From NCBI GenBank assembly GCA_963731265.1, contig CAVSUE010000001.1, positions 1,696,001 to 1,760,000 of the forward strand: 64,000 bases of DNA. The letters are read 5' to 3'. The translations under genes and the position numbers were made by a program. Every line of letters starts with the position of its first letter. Positions within the stretch are counted from its first letter, which is position 1. The notes beneath the pieces were generated by a model that had not been told where the DNA came from, did not search any database, and saw only the letters and a list, made by a program, of their open reading frames with translations. This DNA comes from an uncultured Verrucomicrobiae bacterium. Lineage in GTDB: Bacteria > Chlamydiota > Chlamydiia > Chlamydiales > Rhabdochlamydiaceae. Shown here piece by piece: positions 2,807-64,000 of the stretch.

Positions 2807-3364
2807 TTAGCCTGTTTTTCTTTTTTTGGGCTTGCCTTCTCCGCCTTCTTCATCCTCATCTCGGCCGGTCCGGAATTTCCCTTCATCTTCATTTCGACCA
2901 GTACCAGTGCGGAATTTCCCTTCATCTTCATTTCGGCCAGTGCCAGTACGGAATTTCCCTTCATCTTCATTTCGACCAGTACCAGTGCGGAATTTCCCTT
3001 CATCTTCATTTCGGCCAGTGCCCGTACGGAATTTCCCTTCATCTTCATTTCGGCCAGTGCCAGTGCGGAATTTCCCTTCATCTTCATTTCGGCCAGTACC
3101 CGTGCGGAATTTCCCTTCATCTTCTCGTTCTTTGCCATGAGATTCTCTTGAAGAATCACCTTCTTTACGATACATTTGTTCAAATCGTTTTAATTCTTCT
3201 TCGGCCCTCTTTTGCTCCCAGCCATATCTTTCTTGTAGGGATCCGAGCATTTTTTCCCTGCTACCATTGATTCGAGTGAGATCATCATCCGTTAATTTTC
3301 CCCATTTCTCTTTGACTTTTCCTTTGAATTGGTGCCACTTTCCTTTAAAAATATCGTCTTGCAT
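2807..3364 (-). CDS. CsbD-family stress protein with a repetitive charged C-terminal tail
   Basis: N-terminal KGKW.QFKGKVKEKWGKLTDDDL..I.G.RE...G.LQERYG; SD gaggag upstream; tail of 13-aa repeats. Confidence 0.9.
   Translation of the reverse strand: MQDDIFKGKWHQFKGKVKEKWGKLTDDDLTRINGSREKMLGSLQERYGWEQKRAEEELKRFEQMYRKEGDSSRESHGKEREDEGKFRTGTGRNEDEGKFRTGTGRNEDEGKFRTGTGRNEDEGKFRTGTGRNEDEGKFRTGTGRNEDEGKFRTGTGRNEDEGKFRTGRDEDEEGGEGKPKKRKTG
2871..3125. repeat. Tandem repeat, 39-bp unit (about 6.5 copies) encoding EDEGKFRTGTGRN on the minus strand
   Basis: cggaatttcccttcatcttc recurs at 2871, 2910, 2949, 2988, 3027, 3066, 3105. Confidence 0.97.
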
Positions 3365-5371: not shown

Positions 5372-7146
5372 GAGTTAATCACCTCCGGAACGCGCTTCTT
5401 TATTTCGTCGAATTGACGGGCCAATTCAAGTGCTTCGTCATCGCTAAGGGCGCCGCTCTGGAGCTTTAGGCGGATAGCCTCGCGCTTGTCCATCCATTGA
5501 CGAATGAGGATTTTGCGGATGGTCTCTTTAAATGATTCTTCCGCTCTCATAAGATTGACTTTCCGTTGCATGATCTCACTGAGTAATTTTTGATCTTCTT
5601 CCCCATCAAGGCACCCTCCTAGAGATAGAAGATCGCAAGCGCGATCTTCCTGATGCGCCTTTAAAAATTCGTCGTACAGGCGCGCGGCCCCGGGAACGCA
5701 TAGATGTTCTATTGTCAGATTGGCTTTTGCCATGCCAATGAGCTTAGGATTTTGCGACGAGGCAAGAACAAGCCATCGGATAAAATCTCCTTCTAAAATG
5801 CGGTTAGCGTCGATTTCCTGGATCTTGATGGATGAGCTTCTTTTGATAAACAGGTCGGGCAATGAGATTTGGCCTATGCCCAGGGCAGCTTCGGGGACAA
5901 GCGAAATTTCCGCGAGCTTTTTCAAGCTTTCGTGGACCATCACAGGCATTTCCCACTGTTTGATCTTTTCCACGATCAGGCTGACGATTTCATTCTTTTT
6001 TGACGGGGAACGCAGGTCCGCGTCTTTTGATAAATAGGCGAATAGAAAATTGAGGTAATCGCGGCTCTCTCTTAACAAACCTGCAAAGGAATCGGGGCCG
6101 AACTCAGAGAGCAGCGAATCGGGGTCAGACCCATCGGGAAGAGACAGGACGAAAACTTCCACGCCCTTTTTTTGGAATAAATGCCCGATTTTTGCAGCTG
6201 CGGCCTTTCCTGCATCATCGGCGTCGAGGGCAAGGTAGACTTTATTCACCCCAAGGTGCATCAGCTCCTTGACATGGTCTTCACCAAAGGCCGTCCCCTG
6301 CCCGGCCACTGTATAATTGAATCCGGCATGGATCAACCTCAGGCAATCGATTTGCCCCTCGACGATGATCGCTTGAGATTCCTTGGCAATTCTGGTGCGG
6401 CAGTAGCTAAGGCCGAAGAGGACGCGCGACTTTTTAAAAAGGGAAGTTTCGGGGGTATTGATATACTTTCCGCCAAAAGTCTCTTCTTTGAATTTGCGTG
6501 CGGAAAAGCCAATCACGGCGCCAAGGGCATCGCGAATGGGAAATGTGATCCGGTCGGTGAAAAAATCCCTGCGTTTGCCATGCTGCGTGACCAAAACCAA
6601 TCCCGTGTGTTCCTGGATTTTTTCCTCGACGCCATTTTCATTCATATAGCGTATCAAGATGTCGCCTTGCCTGGGCGCAAATCCAATTTGAAATTGGCGG
6701 ATAAATTGAAGATCGAGCCCTCTTTTGTAAAGGTAGTTCAAAGCGATGTGGCCTTCTGCAGAATGAAGAAGTAAGTAGTGGTAAAGAGAGGATGCAAGCT
6801 CCAAAGCGGCTTTAAGCTGAGATTTGCTTGGTCCTTTTTCTGCTAAGGGCTCCTCGGTCTTCTCCAAAGAGACTTGAAATCTTTCCGCAAGGATTTCGAC
6901 GGCTTGAGAAAAACTCATTTTGACGTACGACATCAAAAAGGCAATCGCATCGCCATGCGCTCCGCAGCCAAAACAATGGTAATGGGAATCCCCTTTTTGA
7001 ACCATGAAGGAGGGCGTTTTTTCTTCATGGAAGGGGCACAAAGCTTTATAAGAGGATCCGGATCTCTGCAAATTGAGATGCCCGGAAAGGACCTCCGGAA
7101 GATCGATGCGCCGACGTAGCAGCTCTAAACTGTCTTTTGTAAACAT
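5368..7146 (-). CDS. dnaG: DNA primase
   Basis: CPFHEEKTPSF zinc finger, YHCFGCG, KYINTPET, TOPRIM IVEGQID and DADDAG; ATG at 7146 preferred because the longer start lies inside a repeat element. Confidence 0.97.
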   Translation of the reverse strand: MFTKDSLELLRRRIDLPEVLSGHLNLQRSGSSYKALCPFHEEKTPSFMVQKGDSHYHCFGCGAHGDAIAFLMSYVKMSFSQAVEILAERFQVSLEKTEEPLAEKGPSKSQLKAALELASSLYHYLLLHSAEGHIALNYLYKRGLDLQFIRQFQIGFAPRQGDILIRYMNENGVEEKIQEHTGLVLVTQHGKRRDFFTDRITFPIRDALGAVIGFSARKFKEETFGGKYINTPETSLFKKSRVLFGLSYCRTRIAKESQAIIVEGQIDCLRLIHAGFNYTVAGQGTAFGEDHVKELMHLGVNKVYLALDADDAGKAAAAKIGHLFQKKGVEVFVLSLPDGSDPDSLLSEFGPDSFAGLLRESRDYLNFLFAYLSKDADLRSPSKKNEIVSLIVEKIKQWEMPVMVHESLKKLAEISLVPEAALGIGQISLPDLFIKRSSSIKIQEIDANRILEGDFIRWLVLASSQNPKLIGMAKANLTIEHLCVPGAARLYDEFLKAHQEDRACDLLSLGGCLDGEEDQKLLSEIMQRKVNLMRAEESFKETIRKILIRQWMDKREAIRLKLQSGALSDDEALELARQFDEIKKRVPEVINS

Positions 7147-7332
7147 ATATTGCTTCACCTGAAAGTTATGAAAATTTCTGCTTCAGCATCTTCATTTTTG
7201 CAGCGCTCGCTTCTCGGCATAATTACCGACACTGATATCGAGCCATGTGCTTGCAAATGGTCGACTTCAACAAACAAAAAATTGAAGCGCTGAAATTGAA
7301 ATTTTCTATAACTTTCAACTGTCAGCAGTATA
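7147..7332. mobile_element. Palindromic/MITE-like element family A, copy 1
   Basis: Terminal inverted repeats (tgcttcacctgaaagttatgaaaattt / aaattttctataactttcaactgtcagcagta); homologous to 34645 and 42849. Confidence 0.85.
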
Positions 7333-7431
7333 GAACCCATTATTACAGGAATCCATGAGTCTGTCTATGAGTTCATTTCGGTATATTATTTTTGCTTTTT
7401 TATGCTACGTTGGGTGACAATAGGCAAAAAT

Positions 7432-10529: not shown

Positions 10530-12352
10530 AAATCCTCGATCAGTTTCCGACCAAGCCCGGCGTTTATCTGATGAAAGATGCAGAAAACAAAGTGATCTAT
10601 GTCGGGAAGGCCAATGTTCTCAAAAACCGGATCAAACAATATTTTTCCCTGGTTGATAGCCGCCCGATGATCCCGTTCCTGATTCGGCAAGTCGCGCACA
10701 TCGACACGATCGTCGTCCCGTCCGAAAAGGAAGCGCTGCTGTTAGAAAACACGTTAATCAAGAAACATCAGCCCAAATTCAACGCCATTCTCAAAGATGA
10801 CAAGACCTTCATCAGCCTGATGATCAACAACCGCCACCCCTGGCCGATGATCCGGCTCATCCGCTATAAAGGAACGCCCAAAGATGACGGCCTTTATTTC
10901 GGCCCTTATACGAGCGCTTTTTCAGCACGTCAGACGTATGAGATGCTCACCCGTTTGTTCCCCCTAAGGCAATGCAGCGACGAAGAATTGAAGCGCCGTA
11001 CGCGGCCCTGTTTGCTTTATTCGATCAAGCGCTGCGTTGCGCCTTGCGTCGGCAAATGCACGAAACAAGAATATGACACTTTTGTGGGAGGCGCTGTCAA
11101 ATTTCTAAAAGGGCAAGACAAAGAGATTTTAAAACATCTTTATGCCGAGATGAAAAAAGCCTCTGAAAGTCAGGAATACGAACGCGCCGCAGCCATTTTG
11201 CAATCTATCCGGCAAATCGAACACGTTGTCGAGACACAAGCTCTCGTTGTGAAAGTCAATGGCAAAAATAGCGACGCTCTGGCCATCTACCGCGAAGGGG
11301 AAGAAGTGATGCTCGTGCAGCTGCTTTTTCGGGAAGGCAAACTGGTCGGCTCGGAGCACTATTCTTTTTCCAATATCCTCGAGGAAGATGAAGATCTGCT
11401 TTCTTCATTCATCTTGCAGCACTATCGGCATTTGGAAGGGATGCCCGATGAAATTCTCGTTCCCATTTCCTTGAAAGACGCCGATGTGATCTCCGAAATC
11501 CTTTCCGAATCGCATCAGAAAAAAAAGAGCGCGATCCTGCATCCCCAAAAAGGAGAAAAAAGAGCCCTGATTGGCATTGCCGAAGAAAACGCCAAAGCCA
11601 TTTTCAGGCAAGAAAAGGACCATCTGGAGCTCAAAGAAAAAATGCTGCTCGACCTGCAAGAAACCCTCAAACTGAACCGCTATCCCAAACGGATCGAATG
11701 CTTTGACACTTCCAACATTTCCGGGACGGATCCCGTCGCCTCCCTCGTCGCTTTTACCGATGGGGAAAAAGACACAAAACGGACGCGGCTGTTCAAAATC
11801 AAAACAGCCCTTAAAGGGGACGATTATGGGGCCATGCGCGAAGTGTTAACACGCCATCTCACCCGTTCGAAGCAAGACGATGATCTCCCCGATTTGATCA
11901 TCCTCGATGGCGGCAAAGGGCAGCTCAACATCGGGTTAGAGGTGTTTAAAGCCCTCGACATCGCCTCCGTCGATCTCATCGCACTCGCCAAAGAACAAGG
12001 ACGCCATGATAAAGGGATGACGGCGGAAAGAGTCTTTTTGCCGGAACACCATGATCCCATTCACCTCAATCCCCGTTCCAGCCTGCTCTTCTTGCTGCAA
12101 AAAGTGCGCGATGAGGCCCACCGCAAAGCGTTGGGCTTTCACCGCCATCGCCGTCAGAAACGCACACTAACGAGCGCTCTAGACAACATTCCGGGCATCG
12201 GCCCCATCAAACGGGGGCGCCTTCTGCGCCATTTCGGCAGCGTAGAAAAGATCAGGCAAGCTTCCGAAGAAGAGCTCAAGCAAGTGAAAGGGATCACCCA
12301 AAAAGACATCCACTATTTAAGAAGTATGGAAAACAGAAACTCTTTGCGATAG
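10517..12352 (+). CDS. uvrC: Excinuclease ABC subunit C
   Basis: GIY-YIG (PGVYLM..VIYVGKA), RIECFDTS, DGGKGQ, C-terminal HhH IPGIGP; start ATG at 10517. Confidence 0.97.
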   Translation: MFDVKILDQFPTKPGVYLMKDAENKVIYVGKANVLKNRIKQYFSLVDSRPMIPFLIRQVAHIDTIVVPSEKEALLLENTLIKKHQPKFNAILKDDKTFISLMINNRHPWPMIRLIRYKGTPKDDGLYFGPYTSAFSARQTYEMLTRLFPLRQCSDEELKRRTRPCLLYSIKRCVAPCVGKCTKQEYDTFVGGAVKFLKGQDKEILKHLYAEMKKASESQEYERAAAILQSIRQIEHVVETQALVVKVNGKNSDALAIYREGEEVMLVQLLFREGKLVGSEHYSFSNILEEDEDLLSSFILQHYRHLEGMPDEILVPISLKDADVISEILSESHQKKKSAILHPQKGEKRALIGIAEENAKAIFRQEKDHLELKEKMLLDLQETLKLNRYPKRIECFDTSNISGTDPVASLVAFTDGEKDTKRTRLFKIKTALKGDDYGAMREVLTRHLTRSKQDDDLPDLIILDGGKGQLNIGLEVFKALDIASVDLIALAKEQGRHDKGMTAERVFLPEHHDPIHLNPRSSLLFLLQKVRDEAHRKALGFHRHRRQKRTLTSALDNIPGIGPIKRGRLLRHFGSVEKIRQASEEELKQVKGITQKDIHYLRSMENRNSLR

Positions 12353-12819
12353 CCTAAATGCTTCTGCAAGATTTGGCTTAGATCATTCTCGGCTTTTTCC
12401 AAAACTTCCTGCTGTTTTTCCGCAGGCAAGAGGGGCATCTCGACAAATACCGCAATTTTTTGATCCTTGGAAAGGTCCACATCAACGGACAAATCCCGAT
12501 TCGGAAAGCATTTTTTCCAATAGTCTTGCACATAGCCTTGAACCACGGCCGAATCGACGAATACTTCATGCCGCCCCATTTTAAAACGGTAGTACGCCCC
12601 GCGACACATCGTATAAAAACCCAGCAGCAGCAACCCACCGCAAGCGAGAATGCCATACCCAATCAAAGAAAAATGGGTGGACTCATTGGAGAAAAAGGCA
12701 GCAATCGCATTGCGCAGATGAGGAGCATATTGAAGCCCGACAAAAAACACCCCTATCACAAGGACAAAGACGACCAAAATGAATTGCACTGCAGAAAATA
12801 GGAGATTGCCAGTTTTCAT
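12313..12819 (-). CDS. Two-TM membrane protein, possibly an AmaP-like anchor partner of Asp23
   Basis: Two N-terminal TM helices plus a soluble domain; co-oriented directly downstream of the Asp23-family gene. Confidence 0.6.
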   Translation of the reverse strand: MKTGNLLFSAVQFILVVFVLVIGVFFVGLQYAPHLRNAIAAFFSNESTHFSLIGYGILACGGLLLLGFYTMCRGAYYRFKMGRHEVFVDSAVVQGYVQDYWKKCFPNRDLSVDVDLSKDQKIAVFVEMPLLPAEKQQEVLEKAENDLSQILQKHLGYRKEFLFSILLK

Positions 12820-12932
12820 CCGTCCTCCGGCGGAAACCCGGCCCTTAAGGGCCGGGTATTTTCAAAAACAATGTTGGGCCGAGTACGAACCTCGGCCCCA
12901 ACTTAATCCCAGGCCTTAAGGCCTGGGTTCAC
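12815..12932 (-). repeat. Three-hairpin element family B, copy 1
   Basis: Near-identical reverse complement of 39644-39761; palindromes acccggcccttaagggccgggt and cccaggccttaaggcctggg. Confidence 0.95.
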
Positions 12933-13387
12933 GAATCAAAAAATTCCTTATGGTGTTCAGAAGCGGATTTCGCTTTTTTCTCCAACAATTCTTCCAAGTT
13001 TGGCTTTCGCTTGGAGATGAGATTTTTAAAAATGACGTGCACAGCGCGCACATGCACATTTGTCAGGCGGCTGATATCTTGCAGAATCTTATTCTGAATT
13101 TCTTCCGCTTTATCTGGAATAGAGATGCCATAGGCCACATTAATCTCAATCCGCACGTTGACACTATGCGTCTTCTGATCCTGATCGACGTGTATCCCTT
13201 TGACCCCGTCCAAACCATCGCCTAAAAGATTGTCAAAAAGATTGCCTTCGAGAGTTTCCACCCCTTCGATCTGGCTCAAAGTTTGAAGCACAATAGACTG
13301 AAAGACCTTGCTTTCAACGTCGCGGATAAACACCGTTTCGGGAAGCTCAATTTCCTTGGTGTCGATTTGCTTAAGCGGATTATGCAT
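12929..13387 (-). CDS. Asp23/Gls24-family envelope stress protein
   Basis: V.IEINVAYGISIPDKAEEIQ..I...I..LT..HV..VHV pattern. Confidence 0.85.
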   Translation of the reverse strand: MHNPLKQIDTKEIELPETVFIRDVESKVFQSIVLQTLSQIEGVETLEGNLFDNLLGDGLDGVKGIHVDQDQKTHSVNVRIEINVAYGISIPDKAEEIQNKILQDISRLTNVHVRAVHVIFKNLISKRKPNLEELLEKKAKSASEHHKEFFDS

Positions 13388-16123: not shown

Positions 16124-18163
16124 TTATTCTCCCATCTGGAAAAGCTTTTGCAAACTCTGGTCGGATGCTGGGAGCGCGGACAAATTCTGCACGCCTTGAG
16201 CTCGGCGGTTATTCCAAGCCGTCAAAATTCCCCATTGATTCACATAAGCATGCAATTTGGAAATCTGATGATCCCGATCTAATGCTTGGAACTCTTCAAC
16301 CAGGGCATTCAATTCCTCAGCCAATCCATTGTAATTTTTAGAATCAAAGGCTTCGACCATCAACTTGGCCATATTGGATTTTTCTGCAATCTCACCAAGC
16401 TTTGCTTGAAAAGCTTTTAGCTTCTGTTGGAAACTCACCCAAGGGCACCCCGCTTCATCAAGAATCACACCACATGTCTTCGTCTCTTCAATCTTATCTT
16501 CGACAACTTGGGATATTTCCCCTGTAAGCGTTGTCAGGTTAGTCTTTCGTCGTTCAGCCTCTGTTTTTACGCTGTTGTCTCTAAAATCTTCTCCGACTTC
16601 TAGGATCTCCAGGCTATCCAACTTCACAAAGTGAGGAGAAGCTAAGCAAATCAGTTTCACGTCTTCTGCCGACAAAATGCCGATTTTTTCTAAATGTCCC
16701 GAACGGCACTTTAGCTTTTCTGAATACTCTTTTTCGGTTTTGATCCCCAGGTGAGCCAGCAATTGAGGGGTGTTTTTTGGAGGCAGATCATTCAAATACT
16801 CCCGAATTGCCTGAGCCTTTTCAACAGGCATAGAGATTAGACCATATTGATTGTGAAAGGCATGTTCAGCACATCCCAAATACTCATTGACAAAAGGTTT
16901 GATATTCTCATAGAGCTTTCCGTAGATGGCATGTTTTGCCGTTTTTGGCATCCGCGAAAACCGCTCAAGGGCGCCAGCGACATCCTGATAACTTTCTAAT
17001 GAGTGTGCGATCTCTTCAAAAATCGTCCTAGCATCCGCTGTCAAATCCCAGACCTTGATGGTTTTGTCGGCAGAGCCCGAAAAAAGCTTTCCCTCGTAGA
17101 CGGCAACAGAGTTAACCGAGTGCCCATGGCCTGTCAGGGTCGCTGTGCACTGTCCTGTTTTTAGATCCCAGACCTTGATTGTGTTGTCCCAAGAGCCCGA
17201 AAAGAGCTTCCCCTGGAAGACGGCGAGAGAGTTAACCCCTTTCCGATGGCCTAGAAGGGTCGCTGTGCACACTCCTGTTTCCAGGTCCCAGACCTTGATG
17301 GTTTTGTCAGCAGAGCTCGAAAAGAGCTTTCCCTCGTAGACGGCAACAGAGTTAACCCCGTGCTCATGGCCTCTAAGGGTCGCTGTGCACTCTCCTGTTT
17401 TTAGGTCCCAGACCTTGATTGTGCAGTTGAAAGAGCCCGAAAAGAGCTTCCCATCGAAAAACGCAAGTGAGTTAACCGAGTTTCCATGGCCTTTAAGAGT
17501 CGCTGTGCACTGTTCTGTTTTTAGATCCCAGACCTTGATTGTGTTGTCCCCAGAGCTCGAAAAGAGCTCCCCGTCGAAGACGACAAGAGAGTTAACCCCT
17601 TTCAGATGGCCTGTCAGGGTCGCTGTGCACTGTCCTACTTCCAGGTCCCAGACCTTGATTGTGTGGTCGGCAGAGCCGGAAAAGAGCTTCCCGTCGAAGA
17701 CGGCGAGAGAGGTAACCTCTTTCAGATGGCCTGTCAGGGTCGCTGTGCACTGTCCTGCTTCCAGATCCCAGACCTTGATTGTGTGGTCGGCAGAGCCCGA
17801 AAAGAGCTTCCCGTCGAAGACGACAAGAGAGTAAACCGAGTTCCCATGGCCTTTAAGAGTATGCAAACCATACACTCCTTTTGTGAGATTTGAATAAACA
17901 CCTTTGTAGGCGCTCTGGAAATTCTCAATGGAGAGCGGATTAACGCTTGGAAAATGGTGACGAAACAATATGCGCCAAACATCATCATCTTCCAGCGCCT
18001 TGTTCAATTGTCTACAGACTAAGGAGCTTGTTACGATTTCCTGGCCAGACAAGTATGTTAAAATTCGATTGACTATGTCTTGGGGCATCTGCAACAGCGG
18101 AGTGTCCTGCGGTATAATGGCTGCAGGGTTGGTAAGCTGTGAATGATTGATGGGATTCGCCAT
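16124..18163 (-). CDS. F-box/WD40-repeat protein (eukaryote-like putative effector)
   Basis: F-box LLQMPQDIVNRILTYLS......SLVCRQL; seven 40-aa GH...LFSGS.D.TIKVWDL repeats; coiled-coil-like C-terminus. Confidence 0.92.
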   Translation of the reverse strand: MANPINHSQLTNPAAIIPQDTPLLQMPQDIVNRILTYLSGQEIVTSSLVCRQLNKALEDDDVWRILFRHHFPSVNPLSIENFQSAYKGVYSNLTKGVYGLHTLKGHGNSVYSLVVFDGKLFSGSADHTIKVWDLEAGQCTATLTGHLKEVTSLAVFDGKLFSGSADHTIKVWDLEVGQCTATLTGHLKGVNSLVVFDGELFSSSGDNTIKVWDLKTEQCTATLKGHGNSVNSLAFFDGKLFSGSFNCTIKVWDLKTGECTATLRGHEHGVNSVAVYEGKLFSSSADKTIKVWDLETGVCTATLLGHRKGVNSLAVFQGKLFSGSWDNTIKVWDLKTGQCTATLTGHGHSVNSVAVYEGKLFSGSADKTIKVWDLTADARTIFEEIAHSLESYQDVAGALERFSRMPKTAKHAIYGKLYENIKPFVNEYLGCAEHAFHNQYGLISMPVEKAQAIREYLNDLPPKNTPQLLAHLGIKTEKEYSEKLKCRSGHLEKIGILSAEDVKLICLASPHFVKLDSLEILEVGEDFRDNSVKTEAERRKTNLTTLTGEISQVVEDKIEETKTCGVILDEAGCPWVSFQQKLKAFQAKLGEIAEKSNMAKLMVEAFDSKNYNGLAEELNALVEEFQALDRDHQISKLHAYVNQWGILTAWNNRRAQGVQNLSALPASDQSLQKLFQMGE
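17040..17870. repeat. 120-bp tandem repeat x7 (WD40 units)
   Basis: cccagaccttgat recurs at 17047, 17167, 17287, 17407, 17527, 17647, 17767. Confidence 0.95.
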
Positions 18164-34633: not shown

Positions 34634-34644
34634 CAAAAGCTATC

Positions 34645-34826
34645 CTGCTTCCACTTGAAAGTTAGGAAAATTTCCGCTTCAGCATCTTCACTTACGGCCA
34701 TCCTTTTGCGACGGACTTTTTATTCGTTTCCATAGACCGTGTGTGCCTGCACATGGTTTACTTCACCAAACAAAAAATTAAAGCGCTGAAATTGAAATTT
34801 TATATAACCTTCACCTGTCAGCAGTA
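34645..34826. mobile_element. Palindromic/MITE-like element family A, copy 2
   Basis: ctgcttccacttgaaagttaggaaaattt ... aaattttatataaccttcacctgtcagcagta. Confidence 0.85.
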
Positions 34827-34945
34827 CATACTAAAACTATGCTTTGTGGATCTATTGATATTTAATTGTAATTTATGTATACTATTAATAATTAATAAAT
34901 AGAATGCACATTTTAACTAATAATTAATTATTTAAATAAATTAAC

Positions 34946-36724: not shown

Positions 36725-39637
36725 ATGAAATTCCCAAGAGCACTTTTCTTTTCTTCTCTTCTATTTTTAACAGTGTCTGCCTATTCGGAAGATGCGGGCG
36801 CGCAAATGGGCGGCTATCGGGTCCTCAAGGATCAAGCGACTCTTCCGATCCTCAATCCTGCGCTGGAAGGAAGAGCTGTGGAAAAACTCGTTCTCGACAA
36901 TGGGCTGCAGGTTCTGCTGATTTCCGATCCAGGAGCGGATCAGTCCGCGGCGGGAGTCGCGGTCGATGCGGGTTCATGGGAAGACCCGAAAGAATACCCC
37001 GGCATGGCCCATTTTTTGGAACATATGCTGTTCATGGGGACGCAAGCTTATCCGAATGAGTTCGAATACATGCAATTCATCTCGGACCATGGGGGCGGCG
37101 TCAACGCCTTTACAGCCTCCGATCGGACTGTCTACATGTTTTCGGTGAATAATGACGCTTACGATGAAGCTCTCGATCGATTTTCCCATTTTTTCATCGA
37201 TCCTCTTTTTTCGCCGAACTGCATCAATCGCGAACTGCATGCAGTGGATCAAGAGCACGCCAAAAACATTGAACATGACGGCTGGCGGCAATACATGATC
37301 CTAAAAGAGACAGGAAATCCCAACCACCCCAATTGTGCCTTTTCTACCGGCAACGCACAGACTTTATCTGGAATTCCGCAGTCGGCGCTAAAAAATTGGT
37401 ACCAATCGCATTACAGCGCAGATAAAATGCACCTTGTGATGGTTTCTCCTTTGCCAATGGAGGAATTGCGCACTCTTGCCGTTACGGACTTTTCGAAGGT
37501 GCCGCAGTTAAAAACTTCTTCAAAAATGATTCCCCCCGAGTTGACCTCCTATGCCCAGCGCGGCCATATGATTTTTATTAAGCCTGTCAAAGACATTAAG
37601 CAATTATCTTTGAACTGGGAAATTCCAGCTGTTTTTGCTGAAGATATGGAACGCCAGGCCCCGAATCTTGTCGCCCTCGCTTTAGCCCAGGAAGGTGAAA
37701 ATAGTCTTACGCAGGTGTTGAAAAAAGAGAAAATCGCCGAAAGCGTGCATATCAGCAGCGATCGTTTCAGTAAAAAAAGCGTCTTTTTTTCCATCGACAT
37801 CACTTTGACCGATTACGGCCTCACCCAAGTCGATGCCGCGATCTCACGAGTTTATCAAGCCATTGCCCGATTGAAAAAAGAAGGGTTCCCGGAGCATCTT
37901 TTCGATGAAACGCAGACGATGGCCAAGCTCAACTACCAATATCAGTCGCGTGACGATGCTTTTCATACCATCATGACAATGGCTTCCGAAATGCCTTATG
38001 AAGAGCTTTCTTCCTATCCTGAAAAAACCAAAATACCTTCTAGGTTTGACTCCGAATTTGTTCAAACTTTTGTGGAGACACTCAAAGCGGAAAATTGCAT
38101 TTACTTTGTGATGGCCGATCCGACGAAGACTGGAATTACAACGGATACCAAAGAAAAATGGATGAATGCCGAATACGCAATCAAGCAAGTTTCACGAGCC
38201 CGGCTCGCCGCTTGGAATGTTGCAGAGCCCAATCCTGCTATTCTGCTCCCGCCGCAAAATCCTTATCTGCCCACACATTTAGTCTTAGAACCGTCTTCAG
38301 CATCAGAAAATTCATCGGAAGGTCCTGCATTGCTGTTCTCGGATGAGGGATGCACCATTTATTATGTTCAGGACAATCGTTATAAAGTTCCTGAAATCGC
38401 CTTTCTCTTCAGCTTCAAATCTCCATTTCTCCAGGCATCTCCTAAATCTCAGGCTCTTGGGGATCTTTATGTACGCGCATTGTGTGAAAAACTCTCTACC
38501 AGCCTCTACCTGGCGTCGAAAGCTGGTCTCAACGTCAAATTCTTCATCGAAGGTTTCGAGCTAAAAATGACGATCCTGGGATTCAATGACAAGGCCTCGC
38601 TTTTGCTAAATGAACTCTTTTCCTCATTCAAAAACGTGTCCCCTTCCAAAGAAGAATTCGACATTTACCGTACTTCGCTGGCCTCTGAATACGATAATTC
38701 TTCAAAAGAATTACCGGTCCGCCAGGCGATGCAGCATCTCGACAATATTCTCTTCAATACCGCTACTGATATAGAAAAACTCGCATCTATAAAAGAAGTG
38801 ACTTTTGAGGATTTCTCTCTGTTTTCCAAGAATTTGTTCCAATCGATTTACACGGAAGGAATGCTCTACGGCAATGTGAGCAAATTAGAAGCTCAAAATC
38901 TGATGCATGGCCTTCAAGCCAAACTAGGCTCTCTTGCTTTTCCGATGCAAGACCATCCCAGGAGAAAAGTGTTAGTCCTTTCGGAAAAATATGGCCCTTA
39001 TAAACTTGTTCAATCCACCGATCGGCAAGGAAGCGGTGTCCTTCTTCTTCTTCAAGAAGGGCCGTTCAGCTTTGAACGTAAAGCGATCCAACAAGTTTTA
39101 GGTTACGCTCTTTCCGATGCTTTTTTTGACACCTTGCGCACGAAACAGCAAACGGCGTACATTGCGAAAGCCTGGAACACGGAAGAAGAGCGCCAGCTCT
39201 TACAATTTTTTGCCGTCCAATCCAGTACTCATAGCCCGACGGACCTTCTTGCCCGTTTCGAATTGTTTTTGGAAACCTTCGACAAAAACCTCAGTGTTCA
39301 AATCCCCGAAGGCCGTTTTGAGAGCATTCGAGCGACACTAATCACTCTGTTAAAAATGCCCCCCGAGAATATGCCGGGCATGGCCAATCAACTCAACGAA
39401 CTTGCCTTTGAATATCACGATTTTAAATGGATCGACAAACGGATCGAGTATTTAAAAGAGCTGAGTTATGAGCGCTTTTGCGAAATTGGCCATCAATTGC
39501 TTTCTCGCAACAACCCGCGCCGCCTTGCCGTCTTAATGGAAGGGATCATTAATCCTGAAAATGATTTTCACTATGAACTTATTTCCAAGGACGACGTGCG
39601 CAATCTGGGGACATTTACCTCGGTTATTCCGGAGTAA
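36725..39637 (+). CDS. ptr: Insulinase-family (M16) metalloprotease, pitrilysin-like
   Basis: Signal peptide; inverted zinc motif HFLEH (GMAHFLEHMLFMG); NAFT; RE..AVD.EH. Confidence 0.92.
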   Translation: MKFPRALFFSSLLFLTVSAYSEDAGAQMGGYRVLKDQATLPILNPALEGRAVEKLVLDNGLQVLLISDPGADQSAAGVAVDAGSWEDPKEYPGMAHFLEHMLFMGTQAYPNEFEYMQFISDHGGGVNAFTASDRTVYMFSVNNDAYDEALDRFSHFFIDPLFSPNCINRELHAVDQEHAKNIEHDGWRQYMILKETGNPNHPNCAFSTGNAQTLSGIPQSALKNWYQSHYSADKMHLVMVSPLPMEELRTLAVTDFSKVPQLKTSSKMIPPELTSYAQRGHMIFIKPVKDIKQLSLNWEIPAVFAEDMERQAPNLVALALAQEGENSLTQVLKKEKIAESVHISSDRFSKKSVFFSIDITLTDYGLTQVDAAISRVYQAIARLKKEGFPEHLFDETQTMAKLNYQYQSRDDAFHTIMTMASEMPYEELSSYPEKTKIPSRFDSEFVQTFVETLKAENCIYFVMADPTKTGITTDTKEKWMNAEYAIKQVSRARLAAWNVAEPNPAILLPPQNPYLPTHLVLEPSSASENSSEGPALLFSDEGCTIYYVQDNRYKVPEIAFLFSFKSPFLQASPKSQALGDLYVRALCEKLSTSLYLASKAGLNVKFFIEGFELKMTILGFNDKASLLLNELFSSFKNVSPSKEEFDIYRTSLASEYDNSSKELPVRQAMQHLDNILFNTATDIEKLASIKEVTFEDFSLFSKNLFQSIYTEGMLYGNVSKLEAQNLMHGLQAKLGSLAFPMQDHPRRKVLVLSEKYGPYKLVQSTDRQGSGVLLLLQEGPFSFERKAIQQVLGYALSDAFFDTLRTKQQTAYIAKAWNTEEERQLLQFFAVQSSTHSPTDLLARFELFLETFDKNLSVQIPEGRFESIRATLITLLKMPPENMPGMANQLNELAFEYHDFKWIDKRIEYLKELSYERFCEIGHQLLSRNNPRRLAVLMEGIINPENDFHYELISKDDVRNLGTFTSVIPE

Positions 39638-39643
39638 CGGCCG

Positions 39644-39761
39644 GTGAACCCAGGCCTTAAGGACTGGGATTAAGTTGGGGCCGAGCTTCGTACTCGGCCC
39701 AACATTGTTTTTGAAAATACCCGGCCCTTAAGGGCCGGGTTTCCGCCAGAGGACGGATGAA
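39644..39761 (+). repeat. Three-hairpin element family B, copy 2
   Basis: Reverse complement of 12815-12932 with three substitutions by eye. Confidence 0.95.
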
Positions 39762-40461
39762 GCATAAAGCATTAGCTATTGCACCTTTTGCCATCATTTT
39801 AATCCTGATCCTTATTTTTTATTTAACCGGACTTCACCATCGCTTGAGCTTTGAAACCATCAAACACGAACATGAGAAATGGAAATTGTTCGTCTTCGAT
39901 CATCCCTTTTTGTCGGTATTTTATTTTGTAGGGATTTATATCGTATCGGTCGTTCTCGTTATTCCAGATTCCACACTATTGACTCTGCTCTCGGGGTTCC
40001 TTTTCCCTTTGCCTCTCGCCATTTTATATACATGTATTGCAGAGACAATAGGCGCGGCGTTGTTTTTCCTCGCCGTACGTCTTGCCTATACGAAGACTAT
40101 TAAAAAAAAAGAAGGCTATTTTCTACACCGGCTACAGAAAAAATTCGAACAAAATGAGGCATCCTATCTGCTTTTTTTGCGCTTTTCCCATCTTCTTCCT
40201 TTCTGGCTGGTCAATTTGAGCGCAGGAATTTTTCATGTAAGAACAGCGACTTTTATTTGGACGACATTCGTGGGAGTGATCCCTCTTGCCTATGTTATTG
40301 CTCAAAGCGGATCGAGCCTTTCCATCTATTTGGAAACCCATGAGCATTTTTCCTGGAATGGCGTTTTCACCACAAAACTTAAACTCAGCCTCATCGCATT
40401 AGGCTTCATCGCCTTGCTTCCTCTTGCTTTCAAAAAATGGATGACGAAAAGACGAAAATGA
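39757..40461 (+). CDS. TVP38/TMEM64 (DedA/VTT) family membrane protein
   Basis: Multi-TM; TLLSGFLF..P, GA...F...R, LR..HLLPF..VN...G, F..TTF.G..P. Confidence 0.85.
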   Translation: MKHKALAIAPFAIILILILIFYLTGLHHRLSFETIKHEHEKWKLFVFDHPFLSVFYFVGIYIVSVVLVIPDSTLLTLLSGFLFPLPLAILYTCIAETIGAALFFLAVRLAYTKTIKKKEGYFLHRLQKKFEQNEASYLLFLRFSHLLPFWLVNLSAGIFHVRTATFIWTTFVGVIPLAYVIAQSGSSLSIYLETHEHFSWNGVFTTKLKLSLIALGFIALLPLAFKKWMTKRRK

Positions 40462-42848: not shown

Positions 42849-43033
42849 TATACTGCTTCCACTTGAAAGTTAGGAAAATTTCCTCTTCAGCATCTTCACT
42901 TAGGGACATCATTTGCGACGGCCTTTTTGTTCGTTTCCATCGACGATGTGACTGCACATCGTCTACTTCAACAAACAAAAAATTGAAGCGCTGAAATTGA
43001 AATTTTCTATAACTTTCAAGCCTCAGCCGTACA
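42849..43033. mobile_element. Palindromic/MITE-like element family A, copy 3
   Basis: tatactgcttccacttgaaagttaggaaaattt ... aaattttctataactttcaagcctcagccgtaca. Confidence 0.85.
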
Positions 43034-43070
43034 TACCGCGCTCCTTCAGGTATAAATGATTTTTGATACA

Positions 43071-51114: not shown

Positions 51115-51143
51115 GGCATCTATTATAAACTTCTTCAGAATTA

Positions 51144-51326
51144 AACTCGACTTTATAACTTTTTGGGCCCGCCGCCTCGCTTATTTACTCTCGGCCGCTC
51201 GACCCCTGGTCGAACTGGGAGTTATTTAAAACAGGAAGGGGTTAAAAACCCCTTCCTGTTTTAAATAACTCCCCCGAGAGCAAATATTTCGAGTCCTTCG
51301 GGCCCAAAAAGTTACAAAGTCGAGTT
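51144..51326. mobile_element. Palindromic element family C, copy 1, with nested hairpin insertion
   Basis: TIR aactcgactttataactttttgggccc / gggcccaaaaagttacaaagtcgagtt; internal perfect 27-bp hairpin 51217-51273. Confidence 0.85.
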
Positions 51327-51336
51327 AAAGGAATAT

Positions 51337-52704
51337 ATGAAATTTTCAATTTTAGTCTTAACGCTTCTTTGCTCTGTCTTTTTACACGCTGCTGAAATCA
51401 GCATCATTGGAGCCGGACTTTCGGGTCTGACATGCGCCCATCGCCTTCAAGAGCTCGGCCATACGGTCACGGTCTTTGAGGCTTTGGACCGCCCCGGAGG
51501 CAGAGTTTTCACCTACTATGCAGAAAATTCCCATGAAGAGTTAGGAGGAAAATTTATCTACGATGGAGGACCTGCAACTCATATTCGCTGCCTCTTGCAG
51601 GAACTTGGTTTGGAGATCGATGTCCATGAAGTTCCTCATACCAAAAATTATATTCATGAAGGAAAGTCTATTTCCTACCATCAATTGCATGAAACGCTTC
51701 CTCCAGCAAATGAGCAAACTTTCCAGACATTGAAAACCCTCGCCGTCGACGCAAAAAATTTTGGGGAAATCCTCGACCGGTTTTGCGAAGGGCTTCCGGT
51801 CATCCGCCATTTGATGGAGCTGCGCACGCGTAATTATGAAGGAGCGCCATCCGCAGAACTCTCTGTGAATTACTTTGAGTTGTTTTGGGAATATTACAAA
51901 CTGAGCGCGGATCATTTGGCGTTAGAAGACCAAGGAAAGGCAGCCTCTTACGATGTTTCCAGCGTCAAAGGAGGCAATAGCCGTCTTATCCATACTCTTT
52001 GTAGAAGAGTCGGAGAAAATTGCATCCACTATCAAAGGCCATTGAAAAATGTCGAACTGCAGAAAAATGGAAAGCTTCTTTTGTATTTTGACAATGGGGA
52101 ACACCGACTCACAGATTATCTCATTTTAACAGTGCCTTTGCCTATTTTAAAAGAGATCGAAATGGATGAAAAGCTCCTTCCTCTCGAGAGAAAAAGCCTC
52201 TTAAGCAACCTTCCTTTTGGCAATAATTCAAAAATCATCATTCCTGTGGCTGCTCAAGGGTCCGTTGATCCTCAATTCTCTTATACAAATGAAGGTATTT
52301 CCTGGTTCAATCACGATTTTACTTTGATGACCCTGTATTTTGGTGGAGAAGCCGCCAAATTTGCCAATGCATCGATCGAAGAAATTTACCGACGGGAGCT
52401 TCCCTTCCTCAAACTGCATTACCCGCAAATTCTATTTCCTCCCGAGGATCAAATCCTAGGCATCTGTTGGCCTAAGGAACGGTATTTTCAGGGAAGTTAC
52501 TCCAACTATGGGACAGATCTATTCGATCCGCTGCACGAAAATGTATGGATAGAAGAGATTCCTGTTAGAAAAATTTTCGCACCGCTTCTGAATGTTGTTT
52601 TTTTTGCCGGAGAAGCCACTGCCCTTGACTTTCCTTCGACGATGGAAGGGGCTGTCGAATCCGCTGACCGGATCAGTGCGCTCGTTCACAAGATCTGCCG
52701 ATGA
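51337..52704 (+). CDS. Flavin monoamine-oxidase-family FAD oxidoreductase with signal peptide
   Basis: IIGAGLSGL..A, EA.DR.GGR, FFAGEAT...TMEGAVES. Confidence 0.85.
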   Translation: MKFSILVLTLLCSVFLHAAEISIIGAGLSGLTCAHRLQELGHTVTVFEALDRPGGRVFTYYAENSHEELGGKFIYDGGPATHIRCLLQELGLEIDVHEVPHTKNYIHEGKSISYHQLHETLPPANEQTFQTLKTLAVDAKNFGEILDRFCEGLPVIRHLMELRTRNYEGAPSAELSVNYFELFWEYYKLSADHLALEDQGKAASYDVSSVKGGNSRLIHTLCRRVGENCIHYQRPLKNVELQKNGKLLLYFDNGEHRLTDYLILTVPLPILKEIEMDEKLLPLERKSLLSNLPFGNNSKIIIPVAAQGSVDPQFSYTNEGISWFNHDFTLMTLYFGGEAAKFANASIEEIYRRELPFLKLHYPQILFPPEDQILGICWPKERYFQGSYSNYGTDLFDPLHENVWIEEIPVRKIFAPLLNVVFFAGEATALDFPSTMEGAVESADRISALVHKICR

Positions 52705-52778
52705 CTGGACTTGAACCAGCACTCTATTGCTAGAAGTAGATTTTGAGTCTACCGCGTCTACCATTCCACCACATCGGC
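52696..52778 (-). tRNA. tRNA-Leu(CAA)
   Basis: gccgatgtggtggaatggtagacgcggtagact-CAA-aatctac...ctggttcaagtccagtcatcggca; long variable arm; CCA not encoded. Confidence 0.95.
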
Positions 52779-52883: not shown

Positions 52884-52986
52884 GTTCGACTTTGCAGCTT
52901 TTTAGGTACGAAGGTCTCGAAATATTTGCTCTCGGCCAAGAGTTAATAGGCGAGGCGGGCGGGCCCAAAAAGCTGCAAAGTCGAGC
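52884..52986. mobile_element. Palindromic element family C, copy 2 (no nested insert, inverted orientation)
   Basis: Reverse complement aligns with 51144-51326 minus the insert; TIR tcgactttgcagcttttt / aaaaagctgcaaagtcga. Confidence 0.85.
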
Positions 52987-53051: not shown

Positions 53052-53771
53052 ATGGAAAGCGATGTGTTGCAGCATGTCATGGATCGCTTGACAAACGCTC
53101 AGATCGTTGCTTCCCCTTATCCCCATTTTTATATTGAAAACATATTCCCAGACGATTTCTATCAGGAGATCCTTGCCAATCTCCCAGATAATGCCTCCTT
53201 TCAAGGCGTTTCACAAACGGGAAAAGTGGATCCAAGAACTTATTTAGAACGGCGTGTCTTGATTTTACAGGAAGATGAATTAATGAAACTGCCGTTTTTC
53301 CATTTTTTATTTTGGAGCAAGTTCACTTCTTCAATAAAAAGCGATTCGTGGTGTTCCACGCTGCTGAGAAAATTCGATCCTTACATCAGACAACGCTTTG
53401 GCGCTCATTATGAAAAAGTGAAATTTTCCTCCACGGCAGAACTTGTCCGTGATGGGACCAATTATGCGATCGGACCTCACACGGATCATCCAATACGGGT
53501 ACTGACTTTGCTCTTCTACTTTCCGCGATCAAAAGATCAAGCCCATTTGGGCACATCGCTTTATCAGCCGCTCGATCCTTCTTTTGAATGCGAAGGATTC
53601 ACTCACCACTGTTTTAAGGGGTTCAAGAAATTGCATACATTTCCTTTTTTACCCAACAGCGTCTTCGGATTTGTCAAATCCAATCATTCTTTCCACGGAA
53701 GAGAGCCGATTTTGGACAAAGGAGTTGAACGCAACCTCATTAATTACTATCTTCAATGGAACCACAATTGA
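53052..53771 (+). CDS. 2OG-Fe(II) oxygenase superfamily protein
   Basis: PYPH, Y.IGPHTD (HxD), GTSLY, SFHG, R..I.Y. Confidence 0.75.
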   Translation: MESDVLQHVMDRLTNAQIVASPYPHFYIENIFPDDFYQEILANLPDNASFQGVSQTGKVDPRTYLERRVLILQEDELMKLPFFHFLFWSKFTSSIKSDSWCSTLLRKFDPYIRQRFGAHYEKVKFSSTAELVRDGTNYAIGPHTDHPIRVLTLLFYFPRSKDQAHLGTSLYQPLDPSFECEGFTHHCFKGFKKLHTFPFLPNSVFGFVKSNHSFHGREPILDKGVERNLINYYLQWNHN

Positions 53772-53774
53772 AAA

Positions 53775-53826
53775 TATACTGCTGACACTTGAAAGTTATA
53801 GAAAATCTCAAGTGGAAGCAGTGTAT
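53775..53826. mobile_element. Internally deleted family A element (termini only, inverted)
   Basis: tactgctgacacttgaaagttatagaaaat + tcaagtggaagcagtg. Confidence 0.75.
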
Positions 53827-63528: not shown

Positions 63529-64000
63529 ATGACGAAATCAATCCAACCTCACAGCTTATCATCTTTGCCACCCATTGTCCCTCAGGAGGCTAGGCTTTTG
63601 GACATGCCGTTAGATATATTCACTCAAATTTTCAGATACTTGTCTAGCCGGGACATCGCGACAAGTTCCTCGGTCTGTAGACAGTGGACCGAGATATTGA
63701 AGGATAACGATGTTTGGCGCATATTATTTCATCACCGTTTTCCTAGCGTTAATCTAAACTCCATTGAGAATTTCAAGAGCGCCTACCAACGCGTTTACTC
63801 AAATCTCACAGCAGGAGTGTATGCTTTCCATACACTTAGATGCCCGGAGGGCTCGGTTGGATCTCTTGCCGTCTTCGAGGGGAAGCTTTTTTCGTGCTCT
63901 CAGGACAACACCATCACGGTGTCCGACCTAAAAACAGGGGAATGCACAGCCACCCTGACGGGCCATCCAGGCGACGGGGACAATATTGAAGCTCTTGCGA
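63529..64000 (+). CDS. F-box/WD40 protein, paralog of 16124-18163 (runs off the window end; not in the ORF track)
   Basis: Hand translation: MTKSIQPH...LLDMPLDIFTQIFRYLS...SSVCRQW...DVWRILF.H.FPSVN..SIENF.SAY..VYSNLT.GVY..HTL...LAVFEGKLFS. Confidence 0.9.
   Translation, partial: MTKSIQPHSLSSLPPIVPQEARLLDMPLDIFTQIFRYLSSRDIATSSSVCRQWTEILKDNDVWRILFHHRFPSVNLNSIENFKSAYQRVYSNLTAGVYAFHTLRCPEGSVGSLAVFEGKLFSCSQDNTITVSDLKTGECTATLTGHPGDGDNIEALA

Follow-up and report, generated by a model that had tools for sequence, protein, structure and literature searches.

The closest described relatives of the repeat analysed here are the PATEs of Haloquadratum (PMC3119063) and the PATE-like ISGst elements of Geobacillus (PMC10055086). 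As the passages compared describe them, these form homogeneous copies with neither a terminal inverted repeat nor a transposase, carry palindromes near their ends, cause no target duplication, lose their cores by deletion between palindromes and are invaded by other small repeats; the Geobacillus elements include gene-less copies and have TTCAT as TAM and TTCAC as TEM. In the available text of PMC4810608, ISC (IscB) and IS605B elements have 5'-GT..CG-3' ends and an N/ATGA target (slashes mark insertion points and junctions), and the term 'start codon' does not occur there. For IS608, the excerpts report a crossed pairing between guides and cleavage sites (PMC3201880, PMC5934647) and 10 nt between the right hairpin and the end (PMC3201880). 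The end alignments of PMC10055086 and PMC4810608 stand in figures or supplements and may bear on the guide placement proposed below.

The chlamydial element has the features listed above for the PATEs, and its TTCAT and TTCAC motifs are identical to those of the Geobacillus elements. Like the ISC and IS605B/IS1341 elements of the compared text, it has GT and CG(G) ends on the ATGA strand and inserts 5' of ATGA, and its left end is common to the TnpB/IscB elements of the family, but it contains no ORF and gave no omega-RNA match. It departs from the PATE descriptions consulted in having a third hairpin, placed centrally, with a loop that covaries with the end, in lacking a guide at the right hairpin foot and in its strong concentration in ATGA overlaps, which go unmentioned in the compared text of PMC3119063 and PMC10055086. 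The literature listings searched, which cover few subscription papers, named no paper on the element or on the use of ATGA overlaps by IS605-type elements. Taken as a whole, the element is likely a non-autonomous IS200/IS605 PATE that inserts just 5' of a host ATGAA.

Two copies in the window and the limits of the element

The preliminary description of the window (the whole stretch of 64,000 nucleotides that was analysed) reported two inverted copies of one three-hairpin repeat, and both are real: 12815-12932 and 39644-39761 are 118 nt each, with 3 mismatches. RNA folding recovered the three hairpins in both copies (z = -4.1 to -8.2; 0 of 200 shuffles as stable), well above shuffles on both strands and as RNA as well as DNA, and added a fourth, small hairpin (12819-12834) that holds the SD-like motif. 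Copy number and size needed correction: BLAST of the genome gave 49 insertions, not two, and within the 118-nt repeat match the mobile unit measures 113 bp (12820-12932 and 39644-39756), ATGAA belonging to the host.

Copy 1 (12820-12932) has its inferred active strand, the one that reads TTCAT, on the + strand. The host target TTCAT (12815-12819) reads ATGAA on the - strand, where it begins the AmaP-like ORF (12313-12819, - strand; a weak NCBIfam match, below the cut-off) that lies downstream of the element. In the left-end linker, the - strand carries the SD-like GGAGGA (12823-12828), with GGAGG 4 nt before the ATG. There follow, on the + strand, the predicted left-end guide GAAA (12833-12836) at the foot of the left hairpin, the left hairpin itself with a TTAA loop (12837-12856), a predicted TnpA site, the central hairpin (12873-12902) with a loop tetranucleotide (12887-12890) that is GAAC here and GAAG in most copies, and the right hairpin, again with a TTAA loop (12908-12927), in which one pair is compensated (7 of 16 rows). 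The element-encoded end TTCAC (12928-12932) reads G-TGA-A on the - strand, and the Asp23-family ORF (12929-13387, - strand) terminates on its TGA, as had been proposed.

Copy 2 (39644-39756) has its inferred active strand on the - strand, with the end at 39644-39648, the right hairpin at 39649-39668, the central hairpin at 39674-39703 (GAAG at 39686-39689), the left hairpin at 39720-39739, the predicted guide at 39740-39743 and an SD-like AGAGGA at 39748-39753. Its target ATGAA (39757-39761, + strand) begins the VTT/TVP38-family ORF (39757-40461, + strand). Since the M16 peptidase gene upstream (36725-39637, + strand) has its own stop at 39637, 6 nt before the element, copy 2 makes up only part of its spacer.

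In the contigs of runs X4 and X8 precisely the bases 12820-12932 are missing (0 ambiguous letters), so that the host TTCAT is retained and TTCAC is lacking, and a 112-nt copy elsewhere is skipped equally exactly in runs X4 and X2. At the site of the copy of locus L117, genome G000 reads aagtc/ATGAA without a left GTGAA (flank identity 94%). For a copy lying within another repeat family, 12 of the 33 listed paralogous sites read ATGAA and 0 read GTGAA; a copy at a tnpA start is missing from the paralogous IS605; and the junction of a tandem pair reads GGACGG/GTGAAC. The element is thus a 113-bp unit that includes GTGAA; ATGAA is host sequence, and there is no duplication. A target duplication of RTGAA was considered and ruled out, as the empty sites retain the right-hand ATGAA. 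Presence is strain-specific: genome G003 has copy 1, lacks copy 2 and keeps the VTT/TVP38 start, ATGAAGCAT, unchanged. The search for empty sites, which the preliminary description had proposed for orthologous loci, thus yielded exact ones, and its claim that the element supplies the ATG of the downstream gene falls with them, because the ATG is host target and is kept both in empty sites and in element-free orthologues (in all 16 such AmaP orthologues among those listed). Among the observations that count against the PATE reading is that in a 121-nt lineage the third target base is loose (ATNAA).

The genome search with the element gave 51 matches at E<1e-6, which correspond to 49 insertions with unrelated flanks (two pairs of matches are each one copy split by a nested repeat); 47 of the 49 keep the left, ATG-side end and 41 keep both ends. 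The element was present in 16 of the 61 genomes searched, all in the window's family (Rhabdochlamydiaceae). Named records in an exact-motif scan were Rhabdochlamydiaceae, Chlamydiae or MAGs labelled Verrucomicrobia, which points to an environmental member of the Rhabdochlamydiaceae as host, and the viral contigs searched gave 0 matches.

Shortened forms and other repeats were also seen. Single-hairpin forms of ~42 nt (L029, L031, L182, L189, L193) keep both ends and correspond to a palindrome-to-palindrome deletion, and several of them are located at starts. Four truncated copies in G000 (C1:1247965, C1:1319789, C2:93111 and C2:127594) end at or near a shared TTAAT/TTCAT after the central hairpin, possibly an alternative right end. 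A 145-170-bp repeat with TIRs and apparent 3-bp TNA-type flanks, which we take to be an IS5-like MITE, lies at C1:1280540-1280684 and 1281301-1281449 of G000; it occupies an identical insertion position in two element copies, and 14 exact end motifs and 60 BLAST pieces of it were found genome-wide. Another intergenic repeat family (window 7145-7358, 34641-34854, 42849-43059 and 53767-53811; 33 core matches in C1) hosts an element copy in one of its members. The window further contains a 120-bp tandem coding repeat (17046-17945) with an inverted paralogue (63569-63967), a 39-bp tandem array (2826-3176), and long hairpins and related repeats clustered near a tRNA gene (51141-51329, 52886-52985 and 52696-52778).

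Relation to IS200/IS605 elements and the right end

At 113 bp the element is too short for a transposase; it is multi-copy, has sharp ends and shows neither target duplication nor a terminal inverted repeat. The 5-nt TTCAT target stays in the flank and the subterminal hairpins are like those of IS605-type elements. The predicted left guide GAAA fits TCAT by the IS608 rule, and the left end matches the left ends of TnpB/IscB elements of the family at 21 of 23 nt. Other IS605-type ends in these genomes are AAAA/TTTAT and CAAA/TTGAT; the fourth pair of the guide rule is one that we take from AAAG/TTAC and GAAT/TCAA. Because most features of a PATE are present and the canonical right guide is absent, we class the element as a PATE variant. 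The portable REP/MITE-like cassette of the preliminary description is thereby borne out, as a mobile element of IS200/IS605 type.

Y1 matches were found in 23 of 61 family genomes. G000, which is 96% complete, has two, both in IS605 elements whose tnpA looks damaged (C1:925700-928400 and 315800-317600; tnpA plus tnpB, TTTAT target), one of which carries a mini-element at its tnpA start. No parent with identical ends was found among 30 Y1, 56 genome, 27 metagenome and 50 IscB/TnpB loci. A symmetric element at L152 consists of two left ends back to back around a palindrome, with TTTAT on one side and ATGAA on the other. The TTCAT strand is leading-strand sequence in 31 of the 49 copies (p 0.039-0.057), which leans weakly the way that a bias towards the lagging-strand template would predict. 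In the mechanism that we propose, TnpA supplied in trans would move the element as single-stranded DNA and insert it 3' of a host TTCAT without duplication. The transposase would bind both TTAA hairpins, GAAA would select the target, and the guide for the right-end cut would be the GAAG loop in the central hairpin, not the hairpin foot.

It is at the right end that the element departs from the IS608 arrangement. Instead of a guide at the hairpin foot ~10 nt from the end, the foot reads NAAT, which does not fit TCAC, and TTCAC directly abuts the hairpin; a matching tetranucleotide stands in the central loop, 45-55 nt from the last base. The stem of the central hairpin is swapped between lineages with compensatory changes (4 central pairs have both sides changed), while the loop is conserved. 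Among 139 distinct copies, 16 of the 17 that have a GAAA loop end in T and 86 of the 99 that have a GAAG loop end in C, the remaining 23 copies belonging to other classes. The per-copy Fisher p of 6e-11 is inflated by descent, so the covariation is carried by its recurrence in three lineages: among 66 co-occurring variant pairs in the conserved backbone the loop/end pair alone recurs in this way, although inside a single lineage numerous column pairs reach equal or higher scores. Between one A-T copy and seven G-C copies, the loop and end sites are the only differences. In a weak tree, built on few columns and with unsettled bootstrap, the A-T copies cluster and the 12 G-T and 2 A-C copies are singletons.

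This pattern is the one expected if the loop is a guide (G-C or A-T, with G-T tolerated). Watson-Crick pairing of the loop with the end, or a pseudoknot, was also considered and, by sequence reasoning, fails to account for the covarying bases. Judged from these comparisons, the proposal that the right-end guide has been displaced from the hairpin foot to the central loop stands somewhat better than even.

Start codons, ATGA overlaps and the TnpB/IscB comparison

Genes were called with a purpose-made simple caller (1960 genes in G000, of which 359 open with ATGAA). The suspected tie to start codons held: 28 of the 47 copies with a left end are at starts and the other 19 are not at called starts, whereas of the 7961 remaining ATGAA sites 453 are starts. 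Occupancy was 2 of 6507 for in-gene sites, 3 of 128 for convergent gaps, 13 of 403 for ordinary ATGAA starts and 15 of 78 for starts in ATGA overlaps. The element is therefore enriched at starts and at ATGA overlaps, and the difference between overlaps and convergent gaps (p=5e-5) means that purifying selection alone is insufficient. The target genes are unrelated (pyrF, ftsW, nadD, umuD, ubiE, truA, sdhA, a histidine kinase and others; 25 of the 28 were scanned and 10 were without a match at 1e-15). A regulon of membrane proteins was ruled out, as the targets are unrelated and 9 of 28 are hydrophobic against a background of 80 of 319. Some gene starts carry insertions of distinct subfamilies or element types from one genome to another: the TVP38 gap (L056, L057 and copy 2 of the window), a MKPK/MNPK gene start (L145/L146) and a MKKYFF gene start (L024/L345).

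At 15 start-site copies the element provides the upstream stop. Because TTCAC, its end, gives G-TGA when read on the strand of the genes, the upstream gene keeps a stop when the element lands in an ATGA overlap; the insertion alters only the third base of the last codon (xxA to xxG, or none) and is silent in 14 of 15 cases. Copy 1 is such a stop-restored overlap, since the runs with the exact skip have no indel there among the rows listed. As the site precedes ATGAA and the stop is restored, many stop/start overlaps are occupied with both genes intact. IStrons are IS605-type elements that avoid harm to the host gene by splicing out of the RNA, whereas the chlamydial element is harmless at the DNA level through the re-created stop codon. 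Under the proposed mechanism, survival at starts would result from the identity of the target together with the loss of in-gene insertions, stop restoration would admit the element to overlaps, and GGAGGA would probably aid re-initiation once coupling is broken, without being required. Divergence of the start-site copies does not exceed that of the rest (p=0.57), so greater age does not account for the excess in overlaps over convergent gaps; longer retention there may do so.

The full-length TnpB and IscB elements of the family provide a natural control. IscB occurs in 15 and this type of TnpB in 33 of 129 family genomes; 50 loci were fetched, and the left end was readable in 39. Of these, 26 are at starts (TnpB 17 of 25, IscB 9 of 14) and 0 of 39 contain an SD-like 4-mer, so an SD is not needed for location at starts. 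The right end of TnpB elements reads G-TAA, and a host ORF of at least 100 codons ends there in 11 of the 19 with the end visible; the right end of IscB elements reads G-TCA, and a host ORF ends there in 1 of 11 (p=0.018, or 0.019 with one shared site merged). This contrast indicates that it is likely stop restoration, and not the ribosome-binding site, that opens the overlap niche and decides access to ATGA overlaps. In G000, a TnpB-only element of 1248 bp (C1:356575-357835; TnpB ORF shortened to 291 aa) has the same target as the mini-element and a similar left end, and it sits in a stop/start overlap, where its TAA end closes one host ORF and the adjoining ATGAA opens the following one. A search of G000 for IscB gave no match, and the control in that search gave none anywhere either.

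Could the bias instead arise at insertion, with the transposase or the state of the DNA favouring TTCAT at starts and overlaps? Such targeting would fit the 4-8 times higher occupancy of overlaps than of convergent gaps, a bias common to three element types and the lack of an age difference between classes. However, the TnpB/IscB contrast follows stop restoration, which is visible to selection only, there is no strong flank preference outside the pentamer, and we know of no mechanism by which the template strand would be laid bare at starts. We regard targeting of this kind as unlikely.

The element does carry an SD-like motif where a ribosome-binding site had been ascribed to it. The 16S tail is CCUCCUUU, SD-like motifs were counted in 559 of 1798 genes of G000 against 115 in a control window, and the spacing of 4 in the element is the modal one among native GGAGG motifs in G000. 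That the host retains start copies as translation modules, because the SD and the hairpins increase or adjust the expression of the gene that follows, is nevertheless improbable. The native spacing would agree with it, as would the over-occupation of overlaps relative to convergent gaps and the decayed remnants before starts, which consist only of both ends or only of the last 11 nt (the SD end). So would the SD changes in G000, with none among 23 copies at starts and 3 among the 15 elsewhere (3 divergent copies excluded), and a variant with a weaker motif in genome G036, with 0 of 6 rows at starts. In the relatives, however, the SD is intact in 28 of 37 copies at starts and 40 of 60 others (p=0.37; the 97 rows include ~9 matches that are reverse or spurious), elements without an SD stand equally often at starts, the target genes are unrelated, sites are empty in close relatives and the motif is predicted to be mostly paired. 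Domestication of the cassette for translation initiation, as had been suggested, is possible but improbable.

Other repeat families and the proposed niche

It is very unlikely that the element is a classical TIR MITE or a RAYT-mobilised repeat of REP/REPIN type. Both would account for the two near-identical GC-rich palindromes, and locus L085 in a relative is a RAYT-like Y1 gene flanked by CCCAGG palindromes that resemble the right hairpin, but terminal inverted repeat and duplication are both absent, the ends obey TTCAT/TTCAC and not the GTAG-type tag of REPs, the left end resembles those of TnpB/IscB elements, and the only two Y1 matches in G000 are both in IS605 elements. The RAYT flanked by the same palindromes that had been suggested was not found by the Y1 search of this genome (96% complete). 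A structured cis-regulatory RNA common to two operons, with hairpins selected at the RNA level, is also very unlikely. The strong folding, the compensatory changes and a terminator-like site on the mRNA strand of the central hairpin would suit it, but a perfect palindrome folds on either strand, and both the loop/end covariation and the G-T pair in the small hairpin read on the strand opposite to the mRNA. Of the 47 copies, 19 lie away from called starts, the 49 insertions precede unrelated genes with hydrophobic targets near background, and no Rfam family matched at gathering score, the window giving only tRNA there and four other loci only sub-threshold chance matches.

Neisseria REP2 and Borrelia IR-A, as the compared part of PMC3184786 describes them, are likewise repeated stem-loops directly upstream of many genes, with a ribosome-binding site adjoining the ATG. 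They have a promoter, their published description places the ATG inside them, and the genes behind REP2 are co-regulated; in the chlamydial element, by contrast, a search found no sigma-70-like promoter, the ATG comes from the host target and the genes that follow are unrelated.

New here are the loop/end covariation and the TnpB/IscB control, which takes weight from the ribosome-binding-site account. Target and end motif are almost identical and read as start and stop, which may make ATGA overlaps a protein-silent niche. We suggest, tentatively and on less than even odds, that a guild of IS200/IS605 elements exploits this niche, and that the PATE is its streamlined specialist, adding an SD, locked in at overlaps, and presenting its guide in a loop ~50 nt from the cut. 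If this is true, a guide need not sit at the foot of a hairpin bound by TnpA, and there would be a second, independently programmable site. The covariation is a directly and cheaply testable challenge to the IS608 model of guide placement, of relevance to programmable single-strand transposition, and the TnpB/IscB contrast would provide a general, testable rule for IS200/IS605 elements. For annotation, dozens of genes in these genomes have upstream regions, apparent SD motifs included, that derive from transposons. The element shows a way for a transposon to spread through a compact genome of coupled operons without protein change, in which the target is the start codon and the end of the element is the stop codon.
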